A DNA stretch of 64,000 nucleotides. It comes from a virus (Duplodnaviria; Heunggongvirae; Uroviricota; Caudoviricetes). A program made the position numbers and the translations under genes. The stretch covers positions 1 through 64,000 of IMG/VR virus record IMGVR_UViG_2556921669_000003; one strand, 5' to 3'. Shown here in pieces: positions 5,993 to 35,857 of the stretch (position 1 is its first letter; the number at the start of each line of letters is the position of its first letter). The notes below the pieces were generated by a model, which saw only the letters and a list, made by a program, of their open reading frames with translations, was not told the origin of the DNA and ran no database searches.

Positions 5993-6280
5993 ATGACGAT
6001 CATCACCAGCGATACGCTGGCGGATATGCGTGCTTGCCTGAATCGAGGCGAGACCATCGCAACCATCGCCAGACGATACGGCCTGAAAGACATGGCTGTC
6101 TACCAGCGTTTGCGCCGCGATCTCGGTGGGCCGCCCATTCCCGGCCCCGCAAACGACAACAACCCAGGCCGCGTGACCCGGATGACGCCGCACAACGGCG
6201 GCTGCTCGACGACGAGCGGCAAGATGCCCGTGACCCTGGTTCGCGTCCCGTCGGTTGATGGGGTGGCGGTGGCGGCATGA
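5993..6280 (+). CDS. small HTH DNA-binding protein (Cro-like early regulator), contains PANDN, ends ...VAVAA
   Basis: First gene after PR; GAGGAGAAACG SD; RGETIATIARRYGLKDMAVYQRLRR resembles an HTH. Confidence 0.55.
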   Translation: MTIITSDTLADMRACLNRGETIATIARRYGLKDMAVYQRLRRDLGGPPIPGPANDNNPGRVTRMTPHNGGCSTTSGKMPVTLVRVPSVDGVAVAA

Positions 6281-6579
6281 GCGACACCAGCAACACGACG
6301 CAGTGCGACTGCGACTACTTCGAGTTCGGCGACTGGGTTCGCTCTCGCCAAAATCCCAATCTCACCGGGCAGGTGATCGGCGAGCGAGGCTGGGGTGAGG
6401 AGTACGAAGTGCGCCTCGCCGACGGCCTCACCAAGACCTGGTGGAAAACCATTGAAATCGAGCACGACCCGGACGGCTCTCCGCCGGCCATGGAAGATGA
6501 CGACACGAACGTCGTCCGTGTGGATTTCACCAAACGGCGCGAACTGCGCGAGGATACGACAACGGGAGGGGCTGCGTGA
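6277..6579 (+). CDS. hypothetical protein (100 aa)
   Basis: ATGA overlap with the previous stop; acidic non-repetitive sequence. Confidence 0.5.
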   Translation: MSDTSNTTQCDCDYFEFGDWVRSRQNPNLTGQVIGERGWGEEYEVRLADGLTKTWWKTIEIEHDPDGSPPAMEDDDTNVVRVDFTKRRELREDTTTGGAA

Positions 6580-7940
6580 TGTACCAGAAGGGTCAGAATG
6601 TCAGAATGACGCGCGACTGCGATTGCGGCGGCTTCAAGAAAGGCGACGTGTTTATGCTGTCGAGAAGCCACAAGAGCGTCGCTTTCTTCGTTGACGCCGA
6701 CGGCGATGACCGTTGCCTCGAGCACAGCTTCGAACTCATCCCCGCCCTCATCATCGAACCAGGCAAGCACTACCGCACCCGCTCGGGCAAGCCGACGGGG
6801 CGTGTAACGGTTGGTGACACCGGCTTCGAAGCGGTCGTTGACGGGCGCGTGCGGATCTTCGACAAGGCCGGCGGCGCAGTTCATGGCGACGACGACATCG
6901 TCGAGGCGTGGGTGCCGAAGGTTGGGGAGCGGGTCGTAGAGGCCGAACCGAAGCAATACAACTTCCTCCGACACTGGTTCGACTACTGGCGGAGCGTCGA
7001 GGGCGTCCTGACGGACAACTCCTTCGTCGTCACAAAGGTGTGTGGTGCGACCGTTCATTACAGCAACCGTGTTGATGGGAACGGCCCCATAGCCGACATC
7101 GCTGACCTCGAACCGCTGCCCGTTGCCACGCAACCGGCAGCCCCGACCCTGAAAATCGAGGCGGGCCGCTACTACAAGACCCGCGATGGGCGGAAGGTTG
7201 GGCCAATGGTGCGAGCCGAAAACTGGCTGGCAGGATTCTATGATTCGGCGCGCCTAATCACTGGTCAGCGATGGGAAGGGGACGGATCCTTTATCGAGGG
7301 CCAAATCTCGAACCTCGACCTCGTCGCCGAATGGCAGGAAACCACCAACGTCGGCGCCCAGGTCGACACGCTGGCCGAGGAATACGGCTCGCCGCATCCC
7401 AGCAATGACAACGCGGCCAAGCCGAAGTTTAAGAAGGGCGATCGGATCAAGCTGGCGGCAGTCCACGAAATGGCGGGATATGGCCGCTTGGATGGCGAAA
7501 CAGGCACAGTGCTGGAAGATTCTTCTGTGCCCTACGTGAAGTGGGACAGGGATGGCGCGAAGCTCGCCATCTTGGAGAAGGAGGCGGACCTCATCGCCAC
7601 CACCCCGACCGTCACCACCTCCGCCATCGTCGCCCTCATCGAAAACGGCCAGCCCAAGCCTGCAGCCGTCCCGCACGTCCACGCTTCGGAAGCTGCCGCC
7701 ACCACGGAGGCGAACCGACTTGCCGGCGTTCACAAGGGCAAGCGGTTCGGCGTGTTCGTGCTGACCACGACAGCGGAAGAGGCGGCTCCGACCTACCGGC
7801 ACGAATGGCAGCGGCTGGCCGTTGCCGGCAAGAAAATCGACGCCATCCGAGAGCTTCGCGGCTTGACCGGGATGCAGTTGAAGCCGGCCAAGGATGTCGT
7901 CGAGCACTTCGTTGCCTACCCGTACGGGCAGGCCGCCTAA
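6576..7940 (+). CDS. hypothetical protein with a C-terminal ribosomal L7/L12-CTD-like domain
   Basis: C-terminal AGKKIDAIRELRGLTGMQLKPAKDVVE closely parallels the L7/L12 CTD core ([24 protein letters not shown]); internal repeated GxYYKTRxGxxVG motifs; contains SNDN. Confidence 0.6.
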   Translation: MMYQKGQNVRMTRDCDCGGFKKGDVFMLSRSHKSVAFFVDADGDDRCLEHSFELIPALIIEPGKHYRTRSGKPTGRVTVGDTGFEAVVDGRVRIFDKAGGAVHGDDDIVEAWVPKVGERVVEAEPKQYNFLRHWFDYWRSVEGVLTDNSFVVTKVCGATVHYSNRVDGNGPIADIADLEPLPVATQPAAPTLKIEAGRYYKTRDGRKVGPMVRAENWLAGFYDSARLITGQRWEGDGSFIEGQISNLDLVAEWQETTNVGAQVDTLAEEYGSPHPSNDNAAKPKFKKGDRIKLAAVHEMAGYGRLDGETGTVLEDSSVPYVKWDRDGAKLAILEKEADLIATTPTVTTSAIVALIENGQPKPAAVPHVHASEAAATTEANRLAGVHKGKRFGVFVLTTTAEEAAPTYRHEWQRLAVAGKKIDAIRELRGLTGMQLKPAKDVVEHFVAYPYGQAA

Positions 7941-8005
7941 CTCAACACCACCTCACCACCACAACAACCTGCTGCTGGTCCGCCAGCAGCAGGCGAGGAG
8001 ACGAT

Positions 8006-8260
8006 ATGTCGAAATCACCGGAAGTCGTCATCATCCATGAGACCGTCGCCAAGTCATGGCTGCGCGATCTCTCCACCTTCACACTGTTCGCTGCGCTCAT
8101 CGGGCTTGGCGTCCTGCTGGATAGCGGCGCGATGCAATGGATGGGCGCCATCATCGCATTCATCACTATCGTTGCGCGGGCGTCAGGTACGCACGGGCGG
8201 AGCCGGAAGACTATCGCGCAAGCTCGCCAGTTCCTTGACGATCTGGAGACAGCCGCTTGA
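8006..8260 (+). CDS. small membrane protein (84 aa, 2 TM)
   Basis: Start after a perfect 11-bp hairpin and GAGGAGACGAT; hydrophobic helices; ends ...ETAA. Confidence 0.45.
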   Translation: MSKSPEVVIIHETVAKSWLRDLSTFTLFAALIGLGVLLDSGAMQWMGAIIAFITIVARASGTHGRSRKTIAQARQFLDDLETAA

Positions 8261-8523
8261 CCCACCACCACAAGGACCCACCCGCTACCGAGACGCCGCG
8301 CGACTGGTGCGGCACCAAACACGGCTCGCTCTACAAGCCCCGCCGCACGCTCAAGCGGGCTGCAACTGCCTTCGTAGCGGCTGGCCTCACCGGCTTCACC
8401 TACGCCTTGCTGCCCGTGGCGTTCGCTGTTGGCGGGGCGGGCATCGGGCTCTGGTATGTCGGCGCCAAGTTCTACCAATGGCTCGACGCCGACCGCTCTG
8501 ACGAGGAGCCTCTGCGGTCGTGA
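8257..8523 (+). CDS. small membrane protein (88 aa, TTG start)
   Basis: TTGA overlap with the upstream stop; TM helices AATAFVAAGLTGFTYALLPVAFAVGGAGIGLWYVGA. Confidence 0.35.
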   Translation: MTHHHKDPPATETPRDWCGTKHGSLYKPRRTLKRAATAFVAAGLTGFTYALLPVAFAVGGAGIGLWYVGAKFYQWLDADRSDEEPLRS

Positions 8524-8613: not shown

Positions 8614-9435
8614 TTGATGTCAGTCTTTGACAGACTTGAACAAAAGCGAAAGCCGAAAGCTCCGGTCCTTGCCGTCTACGGTACGCCGGGCGTCGGCAAG
8701 ACCAGCCTTGCCTCTGAATTTCCAGACCCGCTTTACCTCTATGTCAACGGCGAGGAGCCGCCGGATGGCGTCGACATGCCGTCGGATGAAATCACGTCGT
8801 TCAACGGCCTGCTCGATACCTTCGGCGACCTCCTGACGGAAAAGCACCCTTTCCGCACCGTCATCATCGACAGCCTGGACAAGGTCGAGCCGATGGTCTG
8901 GGAGGAAACGTGCGCCCGGAACGGCTGGGACAACATCGACAGCAATGACAAGGGGGCTCCCACGGCGTTCGGCAAGGGCTTCCTCGGGGCCGACGTCGAA
9001 TGGCGAGAATACCACAACGCCGTCAGCGCACTTTCGCGCGCCGGAATCTACGTGATCCAGATCCTGCACAGCCAGACTAAGGCGTTCAAGGACCCCCTCG
9101 TGGATGACTACGACCGATATCGTCCCAAACTTCAGACCCGAGCTCTCGATCTCGTCATCGAGAACTGCAAGGCGCTGCTGTTCCTGAACCGCCGCACGTC
9201 CGTCAAGCAGGTGGACAAGGGCTTCGGCAAGAAGGAAGCAAAGCCGGAAGGCATGTCGGGATCCGAGCGCATCATCCACACCGACGAGCGCGCCGGGTTC
9301 CTCGCGAAGAATCGGCTGAACGGCGCACCGGCGACGATCCCGTACAAGCCGGGGCAGGGGTTCGCCGAGTTGTCGAAGTACTTCGCGGCCAACGACAACG
9401 TGGCTGACGAGCATGAAGAGCGGGAGGCGGCGTGA
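8614..9435 (+). CDS. Sak4-like / AAA_24 family ssDNA-annealing ATPase
   Basis: Walker A GTPGVGKTS near the N-terminus; size and position (next to an SSB-like gene) typical of Sak4; C-terminus ...FAANDNVADEHEEREAA. Confidence 0.7.
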   Translation: MMSVFDRLEQKRKPKAPVLAVYGTPGVGKTSLASEFPDPLYLYVNGEEPPDGVDMPSDEITSFNGLLDTFGDLLTEKHPFRTVIIDSLDKVEPMVWEETCARNGWDNIDSNDKGAPTAFGKGFLGADVEWREYHNAVSALSRAGIYVIQILHSQTKAFKDPLVDDYDRYRPKLQTRALDLVIENCKALLFLNRRTSVKQVDKGFGKKEAKPEGMSGSERIIHTDERAGFLAKNRLNGAPATIPYKPGQGFAELSKYFAANDNVADEHEEREAA

Positions 9436-9677: not shown

Positions 9678-9680
9678 CCC

Positions 9681-9830
9681 ATGTTCGAACGCGACACATG
9701 GTTCGCCTGGTTCCCGGTCCCGGCCCGGACCGCCTACGGAACGCGCCTCGCATGGCTGGAAACAGTCTTCCGCGAGCGCTTTGTGACAGCCAGTACCGCC
9801 AGCAAGTGGCGTTACTACATCACCGCCTAA
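9681..9830 (+). CDS. small hypothetical protein (49 aa, Trp-rich; not on the ORF track)
   Basis: Protein-like sequence MFERDTWFAWFPVPARTAYGTRLAWLETVFRERF...; its stop TAA is followed by the CCACCACAGCAGGAGAAG module of the next gene. Confidence 0.3.
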   Translation: MFERDTWFAWFPVPARTAYGTRLAWLETVFRERFVTASTASKWRYYITA

Positions 9831-9852
9831 CCACCACAGCAGGAGAAGTAAG

Positions 9853-10425
9853 ATGGCAAATCTCGGCCAGCGATTTAACGCTCAGGACCACGATACCGAG
9901 CAGAGAGACTATGCCGAACTTCCGAACGGCATCTACCAGATGGAAATCGAGGCGTCCGACGTCGGCCCGACCAAGGCGGGCAGCGGCATGATTCTCAAGA
10001 CGACGAACGTCGTCATCGCACCGGACGCGTACAAGGGTCGCAAGCTCTTCAACAACTATAACCTCGAGAACCCGAATCCGCAGGCCCAGGAAATCGGCCA
10101 GCGCCAATTCGCCAGCCTTTGCCGCGCCATCGGCGTGGACAGCGTGGAAGACAGCGAGGACTTGCACTTCAAGTCCTTCACCGTGAAGGTCAGCCTCGGC
10201 AAGGCGCAGAACGGGTATCCGGCCCGCGCCGAAATCAAGTCCTACTACTTCCCCGACCAGGGCAACGTGCCGGAACCGGCGATTGATGCCGTCCAGCCGG
10301 CCGCACAGCCCACCGCCGCCAACGACAACCGGCGCCCCGCTGCCAACGACAACCACCAGCAACAATCGGCCGCCCGTCCGGCTGCGGCAGCAACCGGCGC
10401 GCGTCCGTGGGGGCAGAAGAAGTAA
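9853..10425 (+). CDS. putative phage ssDNA-binding protein; low-complexity C-terminal tail with two AANDN copies
   Basis: Position after the Sak4-like gene; acidic/aromatic core, then ...TAANDNRRPAANDNHQQQ... Confidence 0.4.
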   Translation: MANLGQRFNAQDHDTEQRDYAELPNGIYQMEIEASDVGPTKAGSGMILKTTNVVIAPDAYKGRKLFNNYNLENPNPQAQEIGQRQFASLCRAIGVDSVEDSEDLHFKSFTVKVSLGKAQNGYPARAEIKSYYFPDQGNVPEPAIDAVQPAAQPTAANDNRRPAANDNHQQQSAARPAAAATGARPWGQKK

Positions 10426-10610: not shown

Positions 10611-10671
10611 CCACACCACGGCGGCTGGTTGCACCACAACCGGCCGCCACTTCACCACGAAAGAGGAGAGA

Positions 10672-11106
10672 ATGATGAAACGACTTATCCTGGCCGCCAT
10701 GCTTGCGGCCGTCACGGTCCTCGCCGGCTGCACCGACGACGACGCCAAGATCGCGTCTGCGAACATCACCAAGGCGGCCGACAACTTCGAGATCAATCGC
10801 CGCGTCGTGTTCTACAACGGCATCACCAACAGCTACATCCTGTCGGTCGAAGGACTTTGCTCCATGGACCTGAACAGCGCCGGCACGGCGTTCAACGTGA
10901 TCTGCAAAGTTGGTCCCAGCCAGTACAAGCGCCATACGCTCGTGCTTTCCGACAACACCAGCGCGTTCGTCGAGCAGTTGGAGCCGGCCAAGGCTAGCGC
11001 CTACCACTACCGCGTGACCTTCAAGCCGCAGGCCATCCTGCCCGACATCGACTTCCGGGGCGATGCTGGTGAGCTGACCACCAACAGCAGCGAGGCGAAC
11101 CAGTGA
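10672..11106 (+). CDS. lipoprotein (signal peptide plus lipobox LAGC), possible superinfection-exclusion moron
   Basis: MMKRLILAAMLAAVTVLAGCTDD...; start preceded by a hairpin with a CACCAC loop and AGAGGAGAGA. Confidence 0.6.
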   Translation: MMKRLILAAMLAAVTVLAGCTDDDAKIASANITKAADNFEINRRVVFYNGITNSYILSVEGLCSMDLNSAGTAFNVICKVGPSQYKRHTLVLSDNTSAFVEQLEPAKASAYHYRVTFKPQAILPDIDFRGDAGELTTNSSEANQ

Positions 11107-11930
11107 CCGACTACAAGGCAGAAGCCTCCAAAATAAAGCAAGCTTGCTACCCGATTCCCGGCGCGTTCGCTGCCGGTGGAGCGGTGACGAGCGTTTTCAC
11201 CGGCAAGCCCATCAACGACGTTGACGTCTATTTCAAGAGCCGGGAAGCCTTTGAGGCTGCGGTGGCCTCGGCGTACGACGAGGGCTGGTGGTGCGTCTCG
11301 TCATCGAAGCGCGCTGTCACCTTCAGCGACAATGGCGGCACGCCCGTCCAGTTCATGCATTTCGACTTCTTCCCGACGGCGCACGCAATCTTCGACGCGT
11401 TCGATTTCACAGCCGTCATGGGAGCGTTGGATTTCGACACGGGCGAATTCGTCTTCCATGACGACTTCCTGAAGCACAACTCGCAGCGGTTCCTGCGTTT
11501 CCACCCCGGCACCCGCTTCCCGCTGGCATCGGCAACGCGCGTCCTGAAATACCAAGGCCGTGGCTATACGATCGGCAAGGGCGACGTCCTCAAGATCGTT
11601 CTGGCGGGCCGCAAGGTGAAGCTGGAATCCTGGGACGACCTGAAGGACCAGATCGGCGGCGCATACGGCGAAAAGGTCGTGTTCGGGACCGAGGGCAAGG
11701 AGTTCACGCTCGACGCGGCCATCGACGCTCTTACCGTGGATGACGCTGGCAAGGAAATCTGGATCGCGAACGACAACGACGCCCAGCCAGGCAGCGCCAT
11801 CGAACTGCACCGCAGGCTTTCCGCGTTGAAGGACGAGCAGTTCGACGCCAGCCGGTTCGAGGATGGCGAAGATGGGGATGGCTGGCCCGTTGGCTACGAG
11901 CATCCCGCCCGCATTCGTTGGGCCGCCTAG
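11103..11930 (+). CDS. nucleotidyltransferase-fold protein (Pol-beta-type GGx12DVD motif)
   Basis: GGAVTSVFTGKPINDVDVYF matches hG[GS]x9-13Dh[DE]h; downstream acidic FDAFDF; contains IANDN; ends ...RIRWAA. Confidence 0.45.
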   Translation: MTDYKAEASKIKQACYPIPGAFAAGGAVTSVFTGKPINDVDVYFKSREAFEAAVASAYDEGWWCVSSSKRAVTFSDNGGTPVQFMHFDFFPTAHAIFDAFDFTAVMGALDFDTGEFVFHDDFLKHNSQRFLRFHPGTRFPLASATRVLKYQGRGYTIGKGDVLKIVLAGRKVKLESWDDLKDQIGGAYGEKVVFGTEGKEFTLDAAIDALTVDDAGKEIWIANDNDAQPGSAIELHRRLSALKDEQFDASRFEDGEDGDGWPVGYEHPARIRWAA

Positions 11931-12006
11931 ATCAACCTGCCGCATGGCCACCACCATGCGGCAATCACCACACCACGGTAGCTACCCGCTACGAGAGGAG
12001 ACACCC

Positions 12007-15516: not shown

Positions 15517-16020
15517 ATGAACAAAACCAAGACAACTACCACTGCTACAGCCCGCCCCGCCGACTTCGATGCTCGCGTCATGACGTACATGCCCGGCCTT
15601 CGACGCTTGGCCGCGAAGCACGTCCCGCGTCCGTATCGTGAAGACCTCGTGAATGACACCGTCATGTACGCGCTGGAGAACTGGCGGAACTATCGCGAAA
15701 CCGGCGCCATGTGGTCGTGGCTGGAGTGGACGATGCGCGGCATCGTCACCAACGCCGCAAAGAAGGCAGCCACGCGCGACAAGCACGTCCGTTTCGTGCC
15801 GCTCACCCATCAGGATTCTGCTGTAGCGCCCGCACAGGAAGGCTATGTCCGGCTTTCCGAGACCCTGCGCGGCTTGGCGGCCCACCGCCACGGGACTGTG
15901 CTTATGCGGCGCGCTATGGGCGACACGCTGAGAGAAATAGCGGCCGACCGCGGCGCGACCAAGGAGTGGGTGCGCCAGATGGAAGTGGCCGCCCGCCGCG
16001 AACTGAGGGCAGCAGCATGA
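15517..16020 (+). CDS. ECF-type sigma-70 family sigma factor
   Basis: Region 2-like DLVNDTVMYALENWRNY and region 4 HTH LREIAADRGATKEWVRQMEVAARRELR; ends ...LRAAA. Confidence 0.6.
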   Translation: MNKTKTTTTATARPADFDARVMTYMPGLRRLAAKHVPRPYREDLVNDTVMYALENWRNYRETGAMWSWLEWTMRGIVTNAAKKAATRDKHVRFVPLTHQDSAVAPAQEGYVRLSETLRGLAAHRHGTVLMRRAMGDTLREIAADRGATKEWVRQMEVAARRELRAAA

Positions 16021-16956: not shown

Positions 16957-18727
16957 ACTCCGCTATTATCAACGCGCCAGTTTGGACGCATTGTATTCCT
17001 ACTGGCGCAATGGCGGCGGTAACGGCCTCATCGTGCTGCCAACCGGTGCTGGTAAGGCATTAGTTATTGCTAAATTAATTGAGGAACTGCTGGCCGACTA
17101 TCCGGACATGCGGATTCTCAACGTCACGCATTCCGCCAGTCTGGTAGGCCAAAACTTCGAGGAGTTCATTAAGCTCAGCCCGTTCGCGCCCGCTGGCATC
17201 TACTCGGCCGGCCTGAACCGCAGGGATGCGCACGCTCAGATTCTATTCTGCGGCATCCAGTCCATCTGGAACAAGGTCGACCAGCTTGGCCCGATTGATC
17301 TCGTCATTGTCGATGAGGCGCACGCCATCTCGCGGAACGCGAACACGCAGTATGGACAGTTCTTCAAGGCGGTTCGTGTCGCCAATCCGGACAGCCGAAC
17401 CTGTGGTACGACGGCCACCGACTACCGCATGGATTCTGGCCGTCTGACGGACGATCTGGAAGACGACGAGCCGCTTGCTGGTCTCGCCACCTTGCCGGAG
17501 TTCTACGATCCAGAAGTCGACTTGGTGAAGCCCGCCAAGTTCAAACTCTTCGACGACGTCGTGTATGAAATCGGCATCGGTGAACTGATCGAGCAGGGCT
17601 ATCTCACTCGCCTCACGAGTGCACGCACCGCATCGAAGATCGACCTAAAGGGCGTTGGCACACGCGGTGGCGAATACATCCCAGGCCAGATTTCTGCCGC
17701 TGCGGAACGCATCATCGAGGAGGCCGTGGCTGAGGACATGGTTCTGTCAGAAGGACGGCGAGCCGGTCTGTTCTTCAGCACGAGCAAGGACAACGCCAAC
17801 CACGTCGCGGAAGCAATCCGCCGGCACGGCCGGACCTGCGCCGTCCTGACAAGCGACAACGCGCACCAGACCAAGGAGATTTTTGAAGGCTTCCGGTCCG
17901 GTAAATACTGGGCGATCAGTTCAGTTTCAATGATCACAACGGGCACCAATTTCCCCTTCGTGGATTTCATCAGCTTGATTCTGTCGACGAAAAGCGCTGG
18001 AAAGTTGGTCCAGATATTGGGCCGCGGCACGCGCAACTCACCGGGGAAGACGGAATGCCTCATCGCGGACCATGGGAAGAATTTGGCCTACCATGGGCCG
18101 ATCGACCAGATTCGACCAAAGCCGCCCGGCAGCGGCGACGGAGAGGCGCCCCGCAAGACTTGTCCGTCTGAAGAGACGCCAGGTGCGGTGCGTGACGAGA
18201 ACGGCAACTTTGGCTGCGGGGAAAACATCCACGCTTCCGCCAAGACGTGCCACTGCTGCGGCTATGTCTTCCCGCCGAGCGAGGACGTGAAGATCACCGC
18301 GCAGGCCGCGGATGCGCCGGTGCTGTCCAATGCCCCGGCGGAATCCCGCATCGTCCGGAAGCGGACCTTCTGGCACCACGAAGGGAAGGGGGGCAAGCCG
18401 GACAGCGTCAAGGTGGTATACACCATAGGCATGAGCCTGGTTTCCGAATGGCTTTGCCCTGAGCATGAAGGCTATCCGCGCAGCAAGTCACAGCGATTCT
18501 GGAAGAAACATGGCGGAAGCACACCGTACCCTAAGACCGTCATGGAGTGGCTATCGCGCCAAAACGAACTGGCCGAGACGGCAGAGGTGTTGGTTGCCCC
18601 CCGCGATAAATACTGGGACGTGAAAGAATGGATCGTTAGTGTGGCGGCCAACGACAACGTGCCGGCTGCGGCAAATGAAAACCACTCAAAGCTTGAATGG
18701 GCGATGGACGACTCCATACCTTTCTAG
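16949..18727 (+). CDS. SF2 (DEAH) DNA helicase with internal Cys4 zinc ribbon; C-terminus ...AANDN...AMDDSIPF
   Basis: Walker A LPTGAGKAL, DEAH box VIVDEAHAI, motif VI QILGRGTR; GTG start after GAGGAGG; last six residues resemble the SSB C-terminal tip DDDIPF. Confidence 0.75.
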   Translation: MLELRYYQRASLDALYSYWRNGGGNGLIVLPTGAGKALVIAKLIEELLADYPDMRILNVTHSASLVGQNFEEFIKLSPFAPAGIYSAGLNRRDAHAQILFCGIQSIWNKVDQLGPIDLVIVDEAHAISRNANTQYGQFFKAVRVANPDSRTCGTTATDYRMDSGRLTDDLEDDEPLAGLATLPEFYDPEVDLVKPAKFKLFDDVVYEIGIGELIEQGYLTRLTSARTASKIDLKGVGTRGGEYIPGQISAAAERIIEEAVAEDMVLSEGRRAGLFFSTSKDNANHVAEAIRRHGRTCAVLTSDNAHQTKEIFEGFRSGKYWAISSVSMITTGTNFPFVDFISLILSTKSAGKLVQILGRGTRNSPGKTECLIADHGKNLAYHGPIDQIRPKPPGSGDGEAPRKTCPSEETPGAVRDENGNFGCGENIHASAKTCHCCGYVFPPSEDVKITAQAADAPVLSNAPAESRIVRKRTFWHHEGKGGKPDSVKVVYTIGMSLVSEWLCPEHEGYPRSKSQRFWKKHGGSTPYPKTVMEWLSRQNELAETAEVLVAPRDKYWDVKEWIVSVAANDNVPAAANENHSKLEWAMDDSIPF

Positions 18728-20786: not shown

Positions 20787-21433
20787 CCGACACCTACAAA
20801 CCCGACCAAGACACCTTCCTGCGCGACGTGGCCGACCACAAGATGACCGGCCACGTCATTGACGGCGTCTACCGCCACATCACCTTCGGCCGTCCGGGGT
20901 CTTCGACCTATCGGTTCCACATCACGACGTGGCCCGGATATCTCTGCATCAGCGGCGACATGGGCTGCTTCGTCTTTTCGCGGCTCACCGACATGTTCGA
21001 GTTCTTCCGCGATAAGTGGATCAACCCTTGCTACTGGGCGGAGAAAATCCAGGCGACCAACAAGCACGGCGGACATCGCAAATTCAGTGACGACCTTTTG
21101 AAGCAGGCCGTGGCAAACGATTTCGAGCGGTGGGTCTTCGAGTCCGACGAGCAAAAGGCCGAGGCGTGGAAGGAGATCGACGACGAGTGGGGCGGCCTTT
21201 TCTACAGTGCCTGCGGTAGCGACCACCACCACGCCATTCGTGAGGTCATGGACTGGAAGTGCCCGATCACCGGTCAGCGGTTCGAAGACTTCTATGAGCA
21301 CGATCTGGAGGACTACACCTATCACTACATCTGGTGCTGCCGGGCGATCCTCTGGGGCATCGAGCAATTCGATGCCGGACGGGCGGCTATCGAGGCTGCG
21401 AATGACAATGAGGAAGCGAGGGTGGCGGCGTGA
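20783..21433 (+). CDS. hypothetical protein (216 aa), C-terminus ...EAANDNEEARVAA
   Basis: Trp/Cys-rich globular protein; the C-terminus is the closest match in the window to the alphaproteobacterial SsrA tag ANDNYAEARLAA. Confidence 0.5.
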   Translation: MTDTYKPDQDTFLRDVADHKMTGHVIDGVYRHITFGRPGSSTYRFHITTWPGYLCISGDMGCFVFSRLTDMFEFFRDKWINPCYWAEKIQATNKHGGHRKFSDDLLKQAVANDFERWVFESDEQKAEAWKEIDDEWGGLFYSACGSDHHHAIREVMDWKCPITGQRFEDFYEHDLEDYTYHYIWCCRAILWGIEQFDAGRAAIEAANDNEEARVAA

Positions 21434-22699: not shown

Positions 22700-24004
22700 A
22701 TGACGAGCATTACGATGCACGACGGCAGAGTCGTGCTGCACCAGGCTGACTGCCGCGAAGTCCTGCGCGGGCTAGCCGACAACTCGATTGATAGCGTCGT
22801 GACGGACCCCCCGTATGCGCTGGTCTCCATCCAGAAGCGTTTCGCAAACAGCCCCCGCAGCGAGACGACTGAGAACCCGGTGAATCCGTATGGACGCACC
22901 GGGCGCGGCTTTATGGGCAAAACTTGGGATAACGGCGAGACCGCATTCAGCGAGGCGTTCTGGGCCGAAGTGCTGCGTGTTCTCAAGCCTGGCGGCCACG
23001 TCGTCGCATTCTCAGGCACGCGGACATATCACCGCATGGCCGTTGCGATCGAGGATGCCGGGTTCGAAATCCGCGATCAGTTGGGCTGGGTTTATGGGTC
23101 TGGGTTTCCGAAGTCGCACAACCAGCATGGAGATTGGGAAGGTTGGGGCACGGCCCTGAAACCGGCATGGGAACCGATCTGCTTGGCGCGCAAGCCGCTG
23201 GCCGGGACGGTTGCGGCCAACCTCGACGAGTGGGGCGTGGGGGCAATCAATGTCGATGGATGCCGGATCGGCGATGAGGAACGTTTCAACCCTTCCGCCA
23301 GCCACAACGAGACCTACGGCCAGTTCAAGGGTGCAGAGGATGGCGGCCCGTCCGCCATCGGCCGCTGGCCAGCCAACATCGTCCACGACGGCAGCGATGA
23401 GGTGTTGGCGGCGTTTCCGGACACGAAGAGTGGTCTGATGAAGGCCGGGACTCTGCGAGCGGCGCAGGACGCGCCGGGTTCCGTCGTGTATGGCGTCTAT
23501 GGCGGTGATGCTGCCAAGGCAGACACTTATGGCGACTCCGGATCCGCCGCCCGCTTCTTCTACTGCGCCAAGGCTAGCCGTGCTGACCGGGATGCTGGGT
23601 TGGAGCACCTGCCGAAAAAAGCAGGCGGCATGGTTTCCGAGACCAGCGGTCAGCATATTACTCGCCGGGAGGCCGACTACAAGCCAGAGCCTCGCGCCAA
23701 CACCCACCCGACCGTCAAGCCCACCAGCCTCATGCAGTGGCTCTGCCGCCTCGTCACACCGCCCGGCGGCGTCATTCTGGACCCGTTCATGGGCTCGGGC
23801 AGCACGGGCAAGGCTGCCGTGCTCGAAGGATTCCAGTTCGTCGGCTGCGAGCGCGAAGATGAATACATGCCGATCGCCACGGCTCGCATCGCGTGGGCAA
23901 TCGGGGCGGCCAGCAAAGAGGAGCGCCCCGCAGAGCGGCCAGCAGTTGCCCCGCAACAGCCCGCCGCGAATGACAATGACCTGTTTTCGGCGGCGGCAGC
24001 ATGA
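22700..24004 (+). CDS. beta-class N6-adenine/N4-cytosine DNA methyltransferase (CcrM-like, orphan)
   Basis: Motif IV VVTDPPY near the N-terminus and motif I FMGSGSTGKAA near the C-terminus (circularly permuted beta class); C-terminal tail ...QQPAANDNDLFSAAAA. Confidence 0.8.
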   Translation: MTSITMHDGRVVLHQADCREVLRGLADNSIDSVVTDPPYALVSIQKRFANSPRSETTENPVNPYGRTGRGFMGKTWDNGETAFSEAFWAEVLRVLKPGGHVVAFSGTRTYHRMAVAIEDAGFEIRDQLGWVYGSGFPKSHNQHGDWEGWGTALKPAWEPICLARKPLAGTVAANLDEWGVGAINVDGCRIGDEERFNPSASHNETYGQFKGAEDGGPSAIGRWPANIVHDGSDEVLAAFPDTKSGLMKAGTLRAAQDAPGSVVYGVYGGDAAKADTYGDSGSAARFFYCAKASRADRDAGLEHLPKKAGGMVSETSGQHITRREADYKPEPRANTHPTVKPTSLMQWLCRLVTPPGGVILDPFMGSGSTGKAAVLEGFQFVGCEREDEYMPIATARIAWAIGAASKEERPAERPAVAPQQPAANDNDLFSAAAA

Positions 24005-27954: not shown

Positions 27955-28461
27955 ATGGCCCGCTCCACCACCAAGCAAACCCAAACCACCCGCATCAACG
28001 GCAAGCGTGTCCGTATCGTCACGACGGACGGCAAGGTCGCCATCCAGGCAGCCCCGCCGCTCGAAAGCGATCTACAGGCTGCACAAGTCGTCGCGCTGCG
28101 CCGCATGCCGGAACACCGTGATCGGTTCGTCATAGCCGGCGACATGAACGCGGAACGCCGTGGGCCGAAGGCGCGAGCGATTGCCCTCGCGACCGGTATG
28201 GCTTCCGGCGAGCCGGACCTGCGCGTCTATGCGGAACGCGGCAGGCTGTTGCTGATTGAGAACAAGGTCGGCAATCCGGCGACTGGGGGTGGCGGCAAGC
28301 TCAGCCCGGCGCAGAAGCTGCGGCACGACGATCTGGGGCGGCTCGGCTACCGTGTCGAGGTGGTTCGGTCCATGACACCCGAAGACGCCGCACAGCGGGC
28401 CGTGAGCCTGGTGCGCGAATGGCTGGCGGCCAATGACAACCACCGCGAGGAAAAACCTTGA
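27955..28461 (+). CDS. VRR-NUC domain nuclease
   Basis: ...LLLIENKVGNPATGGGGKLSPAQK... fits the VRR-NUC core; C-terminus ...WLAANDNHREEKP. Confidence 0.55.
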   Translation: MARSTTKQTQTTRINGKRVRIVTTDGKVAIQAAPPLESDLQAAQVVALRRMPEHRDRFVIAGDMNAERRGPKARAIALATGMASGEPDLRVYAERGRLLLIENKVGNPATGGGGKLSPAQKLRHDDLGRLGYRVEVVRSMTPEDAAQRAVSLVREWLAANDNHREEKP

Positions 28462-28529: not shown

Positions 28530-29150
28530 TTGATGACGAGACGGGATTTGTATTTCGCCGTTGAGGGCGGCAGGACGCTGGAAATTGCCAGGAAGCATGT
28601 GGCGGAGCGTGCTGCGGTGGAGGAAGTCAATCGCGCGCTGGCCAAAGAGCTCGGGGCCGAGCGGTACGCGGTCGATTTCTTAACGGGCGTACTGTGCGGC
28701 GTCATTTTCCCCGGCAAGCCGCACGCCGATTTCAAGAAGCCAAACAAGAATGGAGTTTCCAGTCCTCGCGCGAGAACCGCGTGGGATGCGCGTCTCGCCT
28801 CGATGAAGGGATATGACAGGCGCGGCTTTTCGCTTGCAAAGGCCCTAGGCGTGCCGACGGACATCTCATACCGCAAGGGTGACGCAGTGCGCGGCGGCTC
28901 GGCCATTGCTGGCGGCTTCTCGTCCGGTGTTGGCTTCCTCTACCTCTCCGAAGACGGCCCGTTTGCACTCTACGTCCCGGATGTAGCGTATGTTGTCGCT
29001 GACTATGAGGATCGGGGCTACACCGTCTGCGACGAGTGCAAGAACTTCAAGCCTGAGTTCGACGGTGCGCGCCCAATCCTGAAGGAAGAGTGGGAGTTGG
29101 TCGTCGCTCGTCACAAGTTGGCTGAGGCTGAGAAGAAGGTGGCGGCATAA
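28530..29150 (+). CDS. hypothetical protein (206 aa), ends ...EKKVAA
   Basis: CACCACGATAGAGGAGAGA initiation module. Confidence 0.5.
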   Translation: MMTRRDLYFAVEGGRTLEIARKHVAERAAVEEVNRALAKELGAERYAVDFLTGVLCGVIFPGKPHADFKKPNKNGVSSPRARTAWDARLASMKGYDRRGFSLAKALGVPTDISYRKGDAVRGGSAIAGGFSSGVGFLYLSEDGPFALYVPDVAYVVADYEDRGYTVCDECKNFKPEFDGARPILKEEWELVVARHKLAEAEKKVAA

Positions 29151-30049
29151 TGGTACGTCATTCTTCCCTCGCAGATCAGCTCACTGCGCTTCGCTCTTAC
29201 GTCACCGAGCCGGACCATGAGCCGGAGCCCGTTCAAACCAACTGGACCACGGTGCCGGGCAACGACAACGACCCTGAAGACGTTGAGGACCTACACGTCG
29301 AGCGCCGCTGGCGCATGAAGCCTTCCGTCGAAGAGATCATGCGGCAAGTCGCGACGGGCGATATTGAGTGTAACGACGCGGGGCAGGTGGTGCGCATAGG
29401 CAAACTCCACTTCAGCGACGGCACGCAGACCGAGGCGGGCTTTAAACTGGTCATGGGCGAGCCAGTGGCTGCACGCATCAGGATGCCGGTCGGCGCGATG
29501 CTCGGAACGAAGGACGCAGAAGAGGGCCAACTTGGCGGCGAGGTGGATCCCCAACACATCACGGCCAGCAACGAGTACTTCGCCGCGGCGTTCGATGTTA
29601 AGCCCCGCGCCTACAAGTCGGGTGGTCGGAGAAAGCGGGGACGGAATATCAGCCACGCTGAGGCGAAGGCGATGCTTGCCGAGGCTTATGCCAACACGGA
29701 CATGTCCAAGGTTACGTTCACGCGATACCCCGACGGCCTGCCGGCCGGCTCGCCGAAAGTGTCTGAGAATTTCCTCGGGCTGCAGAAGACCACATGCGGC
29801 GATAGGGGCTCGACCATGTGGCAGGACATTGTGTCGGCGAAGGCGGACAGGAAGGAATGGTTCGACGCCGTCGACGCCTTGAAGGCAAAAGACCGCGAAG
29901 TGCTGGAAGCGGCGAAGACGGCGAGGACCATGAGGGCAGTTGGCGTTTCCATGGGGTACACAGGCAAGACGGCCGAGCGGCGAGGGAAGCGCGCATTGAT
30001 CGCCGCGAATGACAACCTCATGGCGGCAATTGACGCATACGCGGCCTGA
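29150..30049 (+). CDS. hypothetical protein (299 aa) with N-terminal PGNDN and C-terminal ...IAANDNLMAAIDAYAA
   Basis: TAATG overlap; strongly SsrA-like C-terminal tail. Confidence 0.5.
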   Translation: MVRHSSLADQLTALRSYVTEPDHEPEPVQTNWTTVPGNDNDPEDVEDLHVERRWRMKPSVEEIMRQVATGDIECNDAGQVVRIGKLHFSDGTQTEAGFKLVMGEPVAARIRMPVGAMLGTKDAEEGQLGGEVDPQHITASNEYFAAAFDVKPRAYKSGGRRKRGRNISHAEAKAMLAEAYANTDMSKVTFTRYPDGLPAGSPKVSENFLGLQKTTCGDRGSTMWQDIVSAKADRKEWFDAVDALKAKDREVLEAAKTARTMRAVGVSMGYTGKTAERRGKRALIAANDNLMAAIDAYAA

Positions 30050-30851: not shown

Positions 30852-30868
30852 CTTTCAGGACCGCGCCC

Positions 30869-31687: not shown

Positions 31688-32311
31688 TTGTTACCTGTTG
31701 CGATGAATCAGGCCGGCTTTGCGGCCCATCGGCGCGTGAGCCGAAAGACCGTCACCGGCTGGAAACAGAGGGGGTTGCTCGTTCTCCTCCCTGATGGCCA
31801 GGTGGATGTTGCCGCTTCGGATCGCGCACTCGAGCGTCACGGCATTTCGTTACCCAAGGTAACAGCCCTAGAACCGGACGACGACCAGGTAACGCCCGAA
31901 GCCTCCCTTGAGGAGGAAGCCCGTCTCCTGGTGTCCGCAGACGGCGAAGAGCTACTTTCGAAGGCGGAAGCCGAGCGTCTAAAAGAGAACTACGCGGCTC
32001 GCTTGAAGCAGCTCGAATATGACCGTGAGGTCGGGCTCGTCGCGGAGATCGACGATGTCGTCGCCGCGGTCGCGAGCGAATACGCAATTGTCCGTAACAG
32101 ACTGCTGGGCATCGGCTCCAAGGTGGCGCCGTCCGTCGCCGTGCTGAATTCGGCGGAGGAGATCAAGGCCCTTATCGACAAAGAGGTGGCGCGCGCTCTG
32201 GGGGCTTTGACGGTGGATGTCCATGGAGAACAGGACTTCGGCAAGGTCCGAGAGTCGATACAGAAGCGGTTCGGACCAGCTTCTGAAGAGGCTGCGCCTA
32301 GCCCGCAGTGA
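31688..32311 (+). CDS. terS: terminase small subunit (N-terminal HTH DNA-binding domain plus oligomerisation domain)
   Basis: Immediately upstream of and overlapping terL; N-terminus NQAGFAAHRRVSRKTVTGWKQRGLL; preceded by the inverted repeat GGTAACACCTTGTTACC. Confidence 0.6.
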   Translation: MLPVAMNQAGFAAHRRVSRKTVTGWKQRGLLVLLPDGQVDVAASDRALERHGISLPKVTALEPDDDQVTPEASLEEEARLLVSADGEELLSKAEAERLKENYAARLKQLEYDREVGLVAEIDDVVAAVASEYAIVRNRLLGIGSKVAPSVAVLNSAEEIKALIDKEVARALGALTVDVHGEQDFGKVRESIQKRFGPASEEAAPSPQ

Positions 32312-34190
32312 GGCTCTCAAAGCCCCGCCGATACTGACTCTCAGCCAGTGGGCGAATGAATACGCCTATCTTTCGCGCGAGAACAGCGCTGATACGGGCA
32401 AATACGAGTCGTTCGGCTACCAGAATGGCATGATGGATGCGGTCACGGACCCGTCTGTCTCGCGGATTACGGTCATGAAGAGTGCCCGCGTCGGGTACAC
32501 GAAAATGATTGACCACATGGTTGGATATCACATCCACCAGGATCCGGCGCCCATGATCATCGTTCAGCCCACCGAGGCTGACGCGCTCGACTACAGCGAC
32601 CGTGAAATCGCGCCGATGCTGCGTGATACGCCGGTTCTGGCCGAGACAGCGGGGGATCTGAGCAAGCGATCGTCAAAGCAGACGCTGGCCGTTCGCTCAT
32701 TTCGCAACGGCGCGTCGATCAAGTTCATCGGTGCGAACAGCCCGAACGGCTTCCGCCGCGTCACGGCCCGCATCGTCGCGTTCGACGAGGTGGACGGCTA
32801 CCCGGAACAGGGCGCCGGCGATGACGGCGACCAGATCTCGCTCGGCGAAAAGCGCACCGAGACGTTTTGGAACAGCAAGATCATTCTTGGGTCGACGCCT
32901 CTCGTTAAGGGGGTTAGTCGCATCGAAAAATCGTGGGAAGCAAGCGACCAGCGCCGCTACCATGTCCCGTGTCCCCATTGTGGTGTCAAACAGACGCTGA
33001 AGTGGGAGAACTTCAAGTGGGACAAGGCCGAGAACGGCAAGCACCTTCCGGAAACGGCTCACTTCCGCTGTGAGGCGGAGGGGTGCGGCAAGCGGATCGA
33101 GGAACACGATAAGAAGTTCATGATCGACAATGGCGAGTGGGTGGCTGAGAAGTCATTCAACGGTCATGCCGGTTTTCACATCTGGACGGCTTACAGCCTC
33201 TTCCCGAAGGCCGCCTGGCGGTTCCTCGCGGCGGAATGGCTCGAAGTCTATAAGGACGAGAACCGGAAGAAGTCGTTCATCAACCTGACGCTGGGGCTTC
33301 CGCATCAGGAAGTCGTCAACGTAGCCGATCCGGACGTTCTGAAGCAGCGCTGTGAGCCTTATAACTGGGAAACGCTACCTTCCGACGTGCAGTTCATCAC
33401 AGCCGGAGCGGACACACACCCTGGGCGTCTCGAAGTGACGCTTGTTGGGTGGGGTAAGGACGAAGAGGCGTGGGTAGCGCGGCACGAGGTGCTGGACGGC
33501 GATGCCTCGAACCTGCAGGTGTGGCGAGAACTGGACGAGCTGCTGGCGACACCGTGCGAAACTGACGATGGCCGGAAGCTGTTGGTGCAGGCTGTCTGCA
33601 TAGACAGCGGCGGCCACAACTCCGAAATGGTCCACAAATACGCTCGTGAGCGCAAACGGCGCCGGATTTATTCTATTATCGGCCGCGGCAACCCGAATCC
33701 AAAGGCTCCGCGCATGATCTGGCCCAAAACGGCCAGCCGAACGAAGAATTCCGGCGACAAGCCCTATGTGATCGGTGTCGATACGGCAAAGGACGAGCTT
33801 TCGTCCCGTTTGGCGATCGTCCCGCATGAAGAGCATCCGACGCCTCGCTCCATCCACTTTCCGGACATGCAGTACAGCCTGAGCGCCGATTACTTCGACC
33901 AATTGACGGCAGAACACGCTGTTACGCGGAAGAAGGGCAGTCTTACGACCCGAAAATGGGAAAAGAAGACTGTCGGCGCGCGAAACGAGGCCTGGGACTG
34001 TCTGGTTTACGCACTGGCGGCTCGCATGTCTCTTCCGAAGAAGCTCAGCAAGGCTCCGAAGGCGCCGCGTGCTGGGGGCGCGCCCCGTCCAGAGCCGGCA
34101 AACGACAATCGCGAGCCGGAAGCGCGCACAGAGAAACCGGTTGAACCCGCTAAAAAGCGAGAACGCAGGCGGTTTGGAGCCTATAAATGA
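32217..34190 (+). CDS. terL: terminase large subunit (lambda gpA family)
   Basis: Long collinear similarity to lambda A (e.g. VMKSARVGYTKMI vs VVKSARVGYSKML); C-terminal tail contains EPANDN. Confidence 0.9.
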   Translation: MSMENRTSARSESRYRSGSDQLLKRLRLARSEALKAPPILTLSQWANEYAYLSRENSADTGKYESFGYQNGMMDAVTDPSVSRITVMKSARVGYTKMIDHMVGYHIHQDPAPMIIVQPTEADALDYSDREIAPMLRDTPVLAETAGDLSKRSSKQTLAVRSFRNGASIKFIGANSPNGFRRVTARIVAFDEVDGYPEQGAGDDGDQISLGEKRTETFWNSKIILGSTPLVKGVSRIEKSWEASDQRRYHVPCPHCGVKQTLKWENFKWDKAENGKHLPETAHFRCEAEGCGKRIEEHDKKFMIDNGEWVAEKSFNGHAGFHIWTAYSLFPKAAWRFLAAEWLEVYKDENRKKSFINLTLGLPHQEVVNVADPDVLKQRCEPYNWETLPSDVQFITAGADTHPGRLEVTLVGWGKDEEAWVARHEVLDGDASNLQVWRELDELLATPCETDDGRKLLVQAVCIDSGGHNSEMVHKYARERKRRRIYSIIGRGNPNPKAPRMIWPKTASRTKNSGDKPYVIGVDTAKDELSSRLAIVPHEEHPTPRSIHFPDMQYSLSADYFDQLTAEHAVTRKKGSLTTRKWEKKTVGARNEAWDCLVYALAARMSLPKKLSKAPKAPRAGGAPRPEPANDNREPEARTEKPVEPAKKRERRRFGAYK

Positions 34191-35857
34191 ATTTCATAGA
34201 TAGGCTTTTTGGCCGTTCCGCCGCTCCGAAACGGGCGCGGGCGCAGTATCTGCGCGACAATAGCTCAGGAATCCTGACCATGAGGCGCGCCGTCACCCGT
34301 GATGGCGCGTCTGCAGTGCGTGAAAGCGCCGAGCGTGCCTCGGCCCTGGCATGGGACTTCATCCGAAATTCCGGCTGGATCGCCGGCGCCGTTGACCAGA
34401 TCATCACCGATACTATCGGCGACGAACTGAAGCTGAGTGCGCGGCCGAAGTTGGCGCGGCTGGGCTGGTCGGCTGAGGAAATCACGGTATGGTGCCGTCT
34501 AGTTGAGGAGGAGTGGTATCTCCACGTATGGAGTGCGCGGGAGTACAGCCTTGACGGCTCGTCAACGCTTGCGGAGCACCTCGACGGCGTGATGCGCTTC
34601 TACATGGCGAGTGGCGAGGCTTTCGGCGCGGTCGACTTCATGCCGATCAGCATGCGCAAGCGTCACGGCGTGACAAGCGGCACGAAGGTTTCCTTGATTG
34701 CGCCTCACCGCGTGAAGCGGGAGACGGACGAGTACAATAACCTCGACCAGGGTGTCTTTCTTGATCCCGAATTGAGGCGGCCCGTCCAGTATCGGACAGT
34801 GGCGCGCAAGGATGGGCAGGATTTCGACCTCGATATCCCGGCATGGAACGGCCCGCTCAGGCGCGTCATCCACGTCATGGACCGGGGGGAAAATCCGGAC
34901 AGCGTCCGCGGCATTTCGCTGCTGGCACCAGTCGCGAAAGTGATCGCGCAGTTTGACCAGCTTGCTGATGCCACCTTGACGACGGCGCTGATTCAGACGG
35001 CTTTTGCGGCGACGATTAAGTCGCCAGAGCCGTCAGTCGATGCGTTTCAGGCGATTTCCGAGCTTGAAGACGACGACGCCGACCTTGCCGGCGACCTTCG
35101 CGATATCTGGGCGGCTCGCATCGAGGCGCTTTCCGAAAAGGGCATCTCCATGGGCGACCATGGCAAGATTAATCATCTTGGCCCCGGCGAAGAGTTCCAC
35201 ATCCACACGGCGGCGACGCCGGGCAACAACTACCTCCCGTTCTCGCAGAACCTCCAGCGTGAAATCGCACGGCGGCTAGGCATCACGTTTGAATCGTTCG
35301 CAATGAACCATTCCAACGCGAACTATTCGTCGGTGCGGATGGCCATGTCGTCGATCTGGCCGATCGTGAAGCGGCGCCGCGAGCGCATTGCTGCTCCGTT
35401 CTGTCAGGCGGTCTACGAAAACTGGCTGGACGAGATGATCGGCTCCGGCCGCATTCCATTCAAGGGTGGCTACGCTGCCTTCGCCGCGAACCGGGCACTT
35501 GTCTGTGACGCGGAGTGGCCCGGTCCGGCTCAGCCGGTGGCCGACGACTATAAGGCCGTCATGGCGGCTGCCAAGCGCGTCGAACTCGGTCTTTCCTCGA
35601 TGGAAGACGAAGCGGCGCTCATGGGCAGGGATGCCAGCGTGACGCGCGAGAAGATCGCAGCCGAAATCATCGACATGGAAGCCAAGCGGATCCCCATTCC
35701 GTTTGGGCGCAGTGTCGGTGGTGGCGGTCCGAGCGGTGCGGCGATGCCTTCAGAGGGCAGGGCGGCCGGTGCACAGGCGAGAATGGAGGCCGAATTGCTG
35801 AAAGAGCTTGAGGACTCCTTGACCGCAGACGGCAAGACAAGGGCGGAGGCCGCATGA
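34187..35857 (+). CDS. portal protein (lambda gpB family)
   Basis: 556-aa protein directly after terL with the lambda-type portal order; ends ...TRAEAA. Confidence 0.85.
   Translation: MNFIDRLFGRSAAPKRARAQYLRDNSSGILTMRRAVTRDGASAVRESAERASALAWDFIRNSGWIAGAVDQIITDTIGDELKLSARPKLARLGWSAEEITVWCRLVEEEWYLHVWSAREYSLDGSSTLAEHLDGVMRFYMASGEAFGAVDFMPISMRKRHGVTSGTKVSLIAPHRVKRETDEYNNLDQGVFLDPELRRPVQYRTVARKDGQDFDLDIPAWNGPLRRVIHVMDRGENPDSVRGISLLAPVAKVIAQFDQLADATLTTALIQTAFAATIKSPEPSVDAFQAISELEDDDADLAGDLRDIWAARIEALSEKGISMGDHGKINHLGPGEEFHIHTAATPGNNYLPFSQNLQREIARRLGITFESFAMNHSNANYSSVRMAMSSIWPIVKRRRERIAAPFCQAVYENWLDEMIGSGRIPFKGGYAAFAANRALVCDAEWPGPAQPVADDYKAVMAAAKRVELGLSSMEDEAALMGRDASVTREKIAAEIIDMEAKRIPIPFGRSVGGGGPSGAAMPSEGRAAGAQARMEAELLKELEDSLTADGKTRAEAA

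Follow-up and report, generated by a model that had tools for sequence, protein, structure and literature searches.

The window analyzed here is the 64,000-nucleotide stretch at positions 1 to 64,000 of the IMG/VR virus record IMGVR_UViG_2556921669_000003 (Duplodnaviria; Heunggongvirae; Uroviricota; Caudoviricetes). Its gene content marks it as a temperate phage or prophage of the 16-3 type, from a Sinorhizobium/Ensifer-type host. Its early proteins end in Ala-Ala far more often than the proteins of a Sinorhizobium sample, and these residues are kept by selection at the amino-acid level. Several of the tails also contain AANDN, which is identical to the start of the SsrA tag of Sinorhizobium meliloti and lies at a tag-like distance from the end, and the pattern is spread across related phages and prophages. 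The tails probably are gene-encoded mimics of the SsrA tag, a reading to which we assign a probability of about 0.6: they would give early proteins a short life, with Ala-Ala-COOH as the signal for ClpX and AANDN as that for the adaptor SspB. From the resemblance to the tag we infer both proteolysis by ClpXP and binding by SspB.

Ala-Ala C-termini of the early proteins

Early genes were taken from the region 5993-36072, using a hand-curated list that was checked with Pfam, PHROGs, and database gene calls on a relative. The host sample consisted of 320 genes (113,068 amino acids) called the same way in 400 kb of pSymB of S. meliloti 1021. Ala-Ala was the most frequent C-terminal dipeptide in this sample, yet it closed only 15 of the 320 proteins (4.7%), as opposed to 18 of the 40 early ones (Fisher p=4e-11). 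Automatic calling at the host thresholds gave 12 of 26 early genes versus the same 15 of 320 (p=2e-8). Late genes of the same phage ended in Ala-Ala in 2 out of 29 cases (early versus late, p=5e-4) and those of the left arm in 2 out of 9. The window as a whole holds 18 early Ala-Ala-ended genes and 4 elsewhere.

An interpretation made earlier from the DNA letters (the sequence-only reading) had listed 15 Ala-Ala tails as an unusual enrichment and held that a similar frequency in the host would speak against it; the 4.7% of the host sample is far from the 45% found here. All 15 tails exist, but only 14 of them lie on the positive strand within the range it gave, 5993-35857, the GRRAA end belonging to the gene 1399-1665 on the negative strand. 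Four Ala-Ala ends were found beyond these 15: TGGAA (6277-6579), QQEAA (14147-15136), LADAA (18807-19244), and FWSAA (24442-24948). The last of these genes is doubtful, with a coding score of 3.3 and no PHROG match. The coding score of the gene 24938-25480, which ends in SRRAAA on the positive strand, is also weak, but this gene matches phrog_21138.

The remaining Ala-Ala ends considered here are on the positive strand as well. VAVAA closes the first gene of the early region (5993..6280) at an ATGA overlap, with PANDN 42 residues before the end, and the TGGAA gene that follows stops at a GTGA overlap. Neither constraint applies to YGQAA (GCC GCC TAA; 6576..7940), which is followed by no overlapping start. 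IRWAA (GCC GCC TAG) ends the protein encoded by 11103..11930, 53 residues downstream from an IANDN. QQEAA terminates a Cas4-domain exonuclease and LRAAA a sigma-70-like factor (15517..16020). Five consecutive genes between 18807 and 21433 all end in Ala-Ala: LADAA, AWAAA (a metallophosphatase), AGRAA (an exonuclease), KEDAA, and ARVAA. KKVAA is found at a TAATG junction (28530..29150), and a late gene, that of the lambda-family portal protein (34187..35857), ends in RAEAA at an ATGA overlap.

A stop-start overlap of the ATGA or GTGA type constrains only the third base of the last codon. The sequence-only reading had attributed the Ala-Ala ends partly to such overlaps, which is correct for that third base but not for Ala-Ala itself. 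Early genes end in Ala-Ala at 11 of 18 overlaps, compared with 3 of 55 in the host sample (5.5%; p=2e-6) and 1 of 10 among the late genes of the phage, and seven overlapped junctions in the window function without it. The enrichment extends to non-overlapping stops, as that reading had also noted, with 5 out of 17 early genes versus 12 out of 255 host genes (p=0.002). Because overlaps in the host and in late genes rarely carry Ala-Ala and free stops are enriched in it, we rejected overlap as its sole source. A by-product of overlaps was expected to be restricted to them, to use fixed codons, and to occur at a similar rate at host overlaps, and none of these expectations holds.

Alanine codons within the genes of the window are distributed as GCC (38%), GCG (34%), GCT (15%), and GCA (13%). 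Where the stop is free of overlap, the last alanine is encoded by GCC in 6 of 6 cases, whereas overlapped genes are forced to GCA or GCG. Among orthologues of the AAA_24 ATPase from 15 genomes, 13 end in Ala-Ala, which is encoded by GCC, GCG, GCA, or GCT, followed by TGA or TAA, and placed at junctions with gaps of -4 to +233 nt. Thus, the residues are kept while codons, stops, and junction layout vary, and selection on Ala-Ala acts at the amino-acid level.

ANDN and the trans-translation tag of the host

The second element, ANDN, had likewise been pointed out upstream of the Ala-Ala ends by the sequence-only reading, and it is real. A six-frame search of the window returned 11 copies in 18,344 amino acids, where 0.14 were expected (Poisson P=8e-18), and no copy was found in the 113,068 amino acids of the host sample. 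All 11 reside in real genes on the positive strand, 9-53 residues before the C-terminus, and their Ala and Asn codons differ from copy to copy.

In S. meliloti, the tag encoded by the tmRNA is ANDNYAEARLAA (supplement of PMC10117765). Together with the alanine carried by the transfer-messenger RNA (tmRNA), the tag reads AANDNYAEARLAA and thus starts with AANDN exactly as the phage tails do; the tag of Caulobacter is AANDNFAEEFAVAA. The distance from NDN to the end is 11 residues in the host tag, 9-14 residues in the two-part tails of the window, and peaks at 9-12 in relatives.

Other origins of the motif were considered and discarded. The varying synonymous codons rule out a DNA-level repeat, and inspection of the codons led us to reject CcrM (GANTC) sites and Hfq ARN motifs as well. 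Genuine tmRNA tagging was excluded because the tails are encoded in frame in open reading frames with ordinary stop codons, and ARAGORN found no tmRNA gene in the window.

Tails with both parts were identified by the ANDN search and translation in four genes on the positive strand. The AAA_24 ATPase (8614-9435) ends in AANDNVADEHEEREAA (9385..9432), and the phrog_4657 protein (20783-21433) in AANDNEEARVAA (21395..21430), the closest copy of the host tag. In the N6/N4 DNA methyltransferase (22700-24004), the tail AANDNDLFSAAAA (23963..24001) includes DLF, which resembles a sliding-clamp-binding motif, and its orthologues end in ANDN..[DS]LFG[DE]AA. The phrog_36072 protein (29150-30049) carries AANDNLMAAIDAYAA (30002..30046) at a stop with no overlapping downstream start. 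Both tag parts are also copied in AASNDNHGRRAA (1402..1437), the GRRAA tail encoded on the negative strand by 1399-1665. The sequence-only reading saw complete bipartite SsrA-like degrons in the tails, but only four or five tails of the window have both parts; about 13 have Ala-Ala only, and several ANDN copies precede other endings.

Among the latter is AANDNHREEKP (28426..28458), the tail of a VRR-NUC nuclease (27811-28461, positive strand) that lacks the Ala-Ala end. The DUF669 protein (9853-10425, positive strand) has two AANDN copies in its C-terminal linker (10315..10353) and ends in RPWGQKK; its orthologues are built alike, with a poly-Ala/Pro linker containing one or two ANDN and a conserved RPWG(x)K end. 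In the ResIII/DEAD helicase (16841-18727, positive strand), AANDN is followed by WAMDDSIPF, an acidic end like that of the single-stranded DNA-binding protein SSB (18644..18724). Orthologues of this helicase in the related loci L010-L019 and in the IMG/VR loci end in DD[DE][IV]PF, like the bacterial SSB tail, after one or two ANDN. The large terminase subunit (32217..34190, positive strand) has PANDN 29 residues before its GAYK end.

Some of these tails hold other short motifs. Clamp-binding-like DLFS, QADLFGEAA, QASLFGDAA, and LPLFS occur in several ANDN tails, above all those of the methyltransferase and a neighboring gene (23963-24001 in the window and L012, L013, L015, L017, and L018 among relatives). 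In the viral loci, 68 unique tails have PF as their last two residues. A small protein encoded next to the methyltransferase (24001-24384, positive strand) ends in SEAPF, and an [ET]APF end is kept in L023, L025, L027, phage AP-16-3, and L031 (DUF6511 in one relative), so that even distant prophages conserve this further terminal motif of the module.

The tails are common in the relatives of the phage. Among the annotated coding sequences of phage AP-16-3, 16 of 59 end in Ala-Ala and at least nine have ANDN tails; ANDN tails are also present in phage 16-3, with 13 Ala-Ala ends in 50, and in the related contig L031, with 11 in 33 according to independent database gene calls. The unrelated S. 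meliloti phage PBC5 has no ANDN and only 5 Ala-Ala ends in 45 and, therefore, the trait is lineage-specific rather than universal among rhizobiophages. We also found the pattern in prophages of Ensifer, Rhizobium, Agrobacterium, Brucella/Ochrobactrum, Mesorhizobium, Pseudohoeflea, Borborobacter, and Ferrovibrio. In more distant loci, Ala-Ala ends are kept and ANDN is absent.

A set of 80 IMG/VR loci yielded 1,093 unique tails, 327 of which (30%) end in Ala-Ala, and 267 ANDN copies versus 1.8 expected. At free stops, Ala-Ala was found in 102 of 522 tails as opposed to 12 of 255 in the host sample (p=5e-9), with all four Ala codons in use. Its frequency was 40% at coupled junctions and 20% at free stops. 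The residue at position -3 at free stops is often L, I, or A, which produces ends of the LAA or IAA type, and some tails, among them FAANDNFAETANAA and VSANDNYAAKAAA, come close to copying real tags.

The two parts of the tail are associated with each other. Out of 83 unique tails with ANDN no more than 17 residues from the end, 57 end in Ala-Ala and 66 in Ala, compared with an Ala-Ala frequency of 27% elsewhere (p=3e-14); the association persists in non-overlapping genes alone (p=0.001). Overall, 87% of the ANDN copies in the 80 loci lie within 60 residues of the C-terminus, and 21 are near the N-terminus. The motif thus marks either terminal tail, because copies also sit near N-termini in relatives. 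Small proteins in L009, L012, L016, and L031 have ANDN 4-6 residues from the N-terminus, in the contexts MIPANDN, MIKPANDN, MDAANDN, and MRAANDN (MRAANDNI... in L031, 19200-19619).

Three protein families were followed across 120 homologues each. In the AAA_24 family, 87 homologues end in Ala-Ala, and NDN is located 9-16 residues from the end in 34. The phrog_36072 family has ANDN in 116 members, exactly 13 residues from the end in 92 of them, and Ala-Ala in 57, in addition to AS, SA, and VA ends. In phrog_4657, 55 members have Ala-Ala after a hypervariable linker, ANDN was gained sporadically, and Ala-Ala is rarer among distant homologues outside the alpha-proteobacteria. Beyond the last conserved domain residue, the tails of all three families differ in length and in sequence, while Ala-Ala is kept and ANDN is sporadically gained or lost. 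To judge from the sequences, this is the behavior of a short linear motif. The AAA_24 tail has a predicted local distance difference test (pLDDT) score below 50 in an AlphaFold 2 (AF2) model.

Degron mimicry and alternative explanations

ClpX engages the SsrA tag by its Ala-Ala-COOH end. The alpha-proteobacterial adaptor SspB-alpha reportedly binds the AANDN start of the tag and tethers tagged proteins to ClpX. Many early proteins of the phage (the ATPase, the exonucleases, the methyltransferase, the sigma-like factor, the phosphatase, and small unknowns) carry short variable C-terminal extensions that appear to copy these two conserved ends of the trans-translation tag. The tail would be exposed, and ClpXP would grip its Ala-Ala end. 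ANDN, some 9-14 residues upstream, would allow SspB to raise the local concentration of the protein at ClpX, and the protein would be short-lived. Early, potentially toxic DNA enzymes would then be cleared after early transcription ends, leaky expression in lysogens would be mopped up, and virion proteins, which lack the tails, would remain stable. The early/late contrast in Ala-Ala ends fits both the clearing of early DNA enzymes and leak-free lysogens.

Experiments in Caulobacter illustrate what an encoded tag can do: CtpA or LpxC with AANDNFAEEFAVAA appended is rapidly degraded, and deletion of sspB slows the degradation (PMC9393093). SspB is present in Caulobacter and other alpha-proteobacteria according to the relevant statements of papers that cite Lessner 2007 and Chien 2007. 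The proposal of the sequence-only reading that the tails are SsrA-like degrons came through computational tests that could have gone against it, and the sequences support it.

Several observations weigh against degron mimicry or limit its reach. Alpha-proteobacterial tags have Y or F next to ANDN, but the phage tails rarely do and mostly have R, V, N, T, D, or E there; if SspB-alpha requires an aromatic residue at this site, binding could be weak. ANDN also occurs on proteins ending in RPWGxK or DDxIPF and near N-termini and, therefore, its role does not always need Ala-Ala-COOH. The portal protein ends in Ala-Ala yet should be stable, and a degron there is doubtful. The tail of the 29150-30049 protein is helical with a pLDDT of about 88 in an AF2 model that is poor overall (predicted template modeling score, pTM, of 0.28). 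As for the counts, the host sample covers a single replicon from a single Sinorhizobium strain rather than the proteome of the true host, and the numbers from related loci lack phylogenetic independence.

The coupled junctions add a further complication. The penultimate alanine at overlapped junctions favors GCA (8 of 14 versus a 13% background), and position -3 is enriched in G-initial codons and in the residues E, R, G, and V, the codons of which create GAGG/GGNG-like Shine-Dalgarno cores. GCA is the rarest Ala codon, and its use here suggests that A is favored at the wobble positions of the spacer leading to the next start codon. The exact string GCAGCATGA is found at eight coupled junctions (14147-15136, 15517-16020, 18807-19244, 19726-20568, 20565-20786, 22700-24004, 24442-24948, and 37897-38469). 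An RNA-level constraint, Shine-Dalgarno sequence plus spacer, is thus superimposed on the protein signal, and it shapes the wobble bases and position -3, not Ala-Ala itself.

This constraint is also the basis of an explanation in which Ala-Ala is a by-product of high G+C content, Ala-rich composition, overlaps, and a downstream Shine-Dalgarno sequence with its spacer (for example, GAG GCN GCN TGA). Besides the eight copies of GCAGCATGA and the Shine-Dalgarno-like codons at position -3, it can call on the location of 11 of the 18 early Ala-Ala ends at ATGA/GTGA overlaps and on the rank of Ala-Ala as the top C-terminal dipeptide in the host, at 4.7%. It does not account for the scarcity of Ala-Ala at host overlaps (3 of 55) and late overlaps (1 of 10), the four- to sixfold enrichment in non-overlapping genes, the seven overlapped junctions without Ala-Ala, or the orthologues that retain the residues across changes of codon, stop codon, and gap. 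ANDN, at least 30 nt upstream and spelled with varying codons, is left unexplained as well, and we regard a nucleotide-level origin as largely refuted, with hardly any probability left. Selection on Ala-Ala-COOH for a reason unrelated to ClpX, such as a small last residue that makes termination and re-initiation efficient, or shielding from another C-terminal-specific activity, is very improbable, too. It fits the contrast in the 80 viral loci, where 40% of coupled junctions and 20% of free stops have Ala-Ala, but it explains neither the early/late difference within one phage, nor the link to ANDN, nor the LAA/IAA-type ends at free stops, and we know of no established mechanism that favors Ala-Ala for termination.

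Two further alternatives concern the partners of the motifs. ANDN, and perhaps Ala-Ala, might dock the proteins to a non-protease partner, such as a phage or host hub of the replisome or of recombination (the phage sliding clamp, SSB, or the DUF669 protein), in which case the likeness to SsrA would be coincidental or secondary. The motif bearers are mostly replication and recombination enzymes, and the phage has its own beta-clamp (11863-13059, positive strand; phrog_947, annotated as the processivity factor in phage 16-3). Several tails contain [DS]LF clamp-binding-like motifs, ANDN is found on the RPWGxK- and DDxIPF-ended proteins and near N-termini, and the tails have not retained the aromatic residue found in real tags. 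Even so, the five-residue identity of AANDN with the host tag, the tag-like spacing, and the association with Ala-Ala-COOH (p=3e-14) are hard to obtain by chance, and Ala-Ala ends are frequent without any other motif. The known clamp- or SSB-tail-binding motifs, moreover, contain hydrophobic residues, and ANDN contains none. Overall, docking appears doubtful. Unlikely, in our view, is a collective effect in which early proteins with AANDN...AA tails, abundant and numbering in the dozens, beyond shortening their own life, jointly load SspB and ClpXP in a competitive manner. Early proteins would then be stabilized while ClpXP is busy with truly SsrA-tagged chains, so that phage development would be coupled to host trans-translation and proteolysis. 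ClpXP-dependent host processes (cell-cycle proteolysis, antitoxin turnover, and defense systems) might be jammed during infection, and ANDN on non-Ala-Ala proteins or at N-termini could act as a pure SspB decoy or tether.

If the degron reading is correct, temperate Rhizobiales phages of a large, widely distributed group, including the classic model 16-3, encode the host quality-control tag, its adaptor-binding half included, in a third to half of their early genes, which would amount to a proteome-scale viral use of SsrA, SspB, and ClpXP. The shutdown of early functions would have a simple explanation, and so would the ability of lysogens to cope with leaky nucleases and methylases. Dozens of tag variants that differ in their spacers would also be available as a natural library for studies of SspB-alpha and ClpX specificity, together with ready-made tunable degrons for alpha-proteobacterial genetics.

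Other features of the window and comparison with known systems

The assignment of the window to 16-3-like temperate phages follows from genes for an S24 repressor, a terminase and a portal of the lambda type, and a prohead protease resembling ClpP. The same genes leave the term "helper" proteins, which the sequence-only reading had used for these open reading frames, without support. The G+C content of the window is 61%, and at the DNA level it resembles Sinorhizobium phage AP-16-3 and Rhizobium phage 16-3 only weakly (megablast of 24 kb against a phage collection returned nothing but short matches to 16-3-type phages). The left arm encodes, on the negative strand, the S24 LexA-like repressor (3612-4289), a helix-turn-helix (HTH) protein (5248-5901) that ends in AVAT, and an SPFH/Band 7 family protein (1824-2735). 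The gene of the latter adjoins the immunity region and could be a lysogenic-conversion or defense gene.

The rightward early operon starts at 5993 and includes genes for the AAA_24 ATPase, the DUF669 protein, the beta-clamp, the Cas4-like exonuclease, the sigma-like factor, the ResIII helicase, the metallophosphatase, a second exonuclease, the N6/N4 methyltransferase, a primase-polymerase, and the VRR-NUC nuclease. A tRNA-Met (CAT) gene (30776-30851, positive strand) lies between this operon and the terminase genes; a long open reading frame (30542-31486) overlaps it and, as called, is probably no gene. The late genes comprise the lambda-type terminase (32217-34190), the portal (34187-35857), the ClpP-like prohead protease (36085-37149), and other virion genes. 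Two late proteins (46556-47104 and 53889-54422, positive strand) share a near-identical 21-residue C-terminal stretch, which suggests that a module of tail or tail-fiber genes was duplicated or exchanged.

A C/A-rich motif, (TAA)CCACCACC, directly follows several non-overlapping stops and precedes the next ribosome-binding site (7941-7963, 8259-8269, 9828-9838, 10611-10618, 15460-15470, 19739-19752, and, on the negative strand, 2750-2760). With up to two mismatches, TAACCACCACC occurs 28 times versus 8.7 expected, a number reached in none of 100 shuffles. Its role may be that of an intergenic signal or of an unstructured enhancer of translation.

Among known systems, the tails most closely recall the alpha-proteobacterial SsrA (tmRNA)/SspB/ClpXP pathway, with which they share the AANDN start, the Ala-Ala-COOH end, an NDN spacing of 9-14 as opposed to 11 residues, and, as expected readers, SspB-alpha and ClpX. 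The SsrA tag is templated by tmRNA onto stalled chains during translation, whereas the phage tails are encoded in frame by the genes, with the middle of the tail free to vary. Unlike the tag, they mostly lack Y or F after ANDN, and many have one part only. The tails also resemble ordinary coupled ATGA/GTGA junctions in that most Ala-Ala ends are found there, the overlap sets the last third base, and the wobble position of the penultimate alanine leans toward A. However, coupled junctions of the host and of the phage late genes do not yield Ala-Ala as those of the early genes do.

Caulobacter has ClpXP substrates that end in Ala-Ala, CtrA being an example. Natural ClpXP substrates with an SsrA-like "C-motif 1", in which a free non-polar Ala-Ala end is the signal for ClpX, are described in Flynn et al. 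2003, as cited in PMC8138137. Such substrates are scattered host proteins, whereas here the ends are concentrated in one phage module and often accompanied by a copy of the adaptor site.

The nearest viral precedent comes from mycobacteriophages with integration-dependent immunity, whose Int and Rep proteins bear ssrA-like C-terminal tags (Broussard et al. 2013, as summarized in PMC9635641); it is the only case that we found in the literature on ANDN or ssrA-like tails of phage proteins. In that summary, the C-terminal ssrA-like tag is phage-encoded, as here, and host ClpXP sets the level of the phage protein, as it would here on the degron reading. Two regulatory proteins are tagged there, and integration within the repressor gene removes the tag. 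In the phage examined here, a third to half of the early proteins, mostly DNA enzymes, have the tails, the adaptor-binding part is copied too, and the host is an alpha-proteobacterium. The S24 repressor, which ends in VQAGAY, and the HTH protein carry no tag, and the tags are instead on replication genes. New here, then, are the scale of the phenomenon, the copying of the adaptor half, the spread over Rhizobiales prophages, and the kind of proteins that bear the tails.

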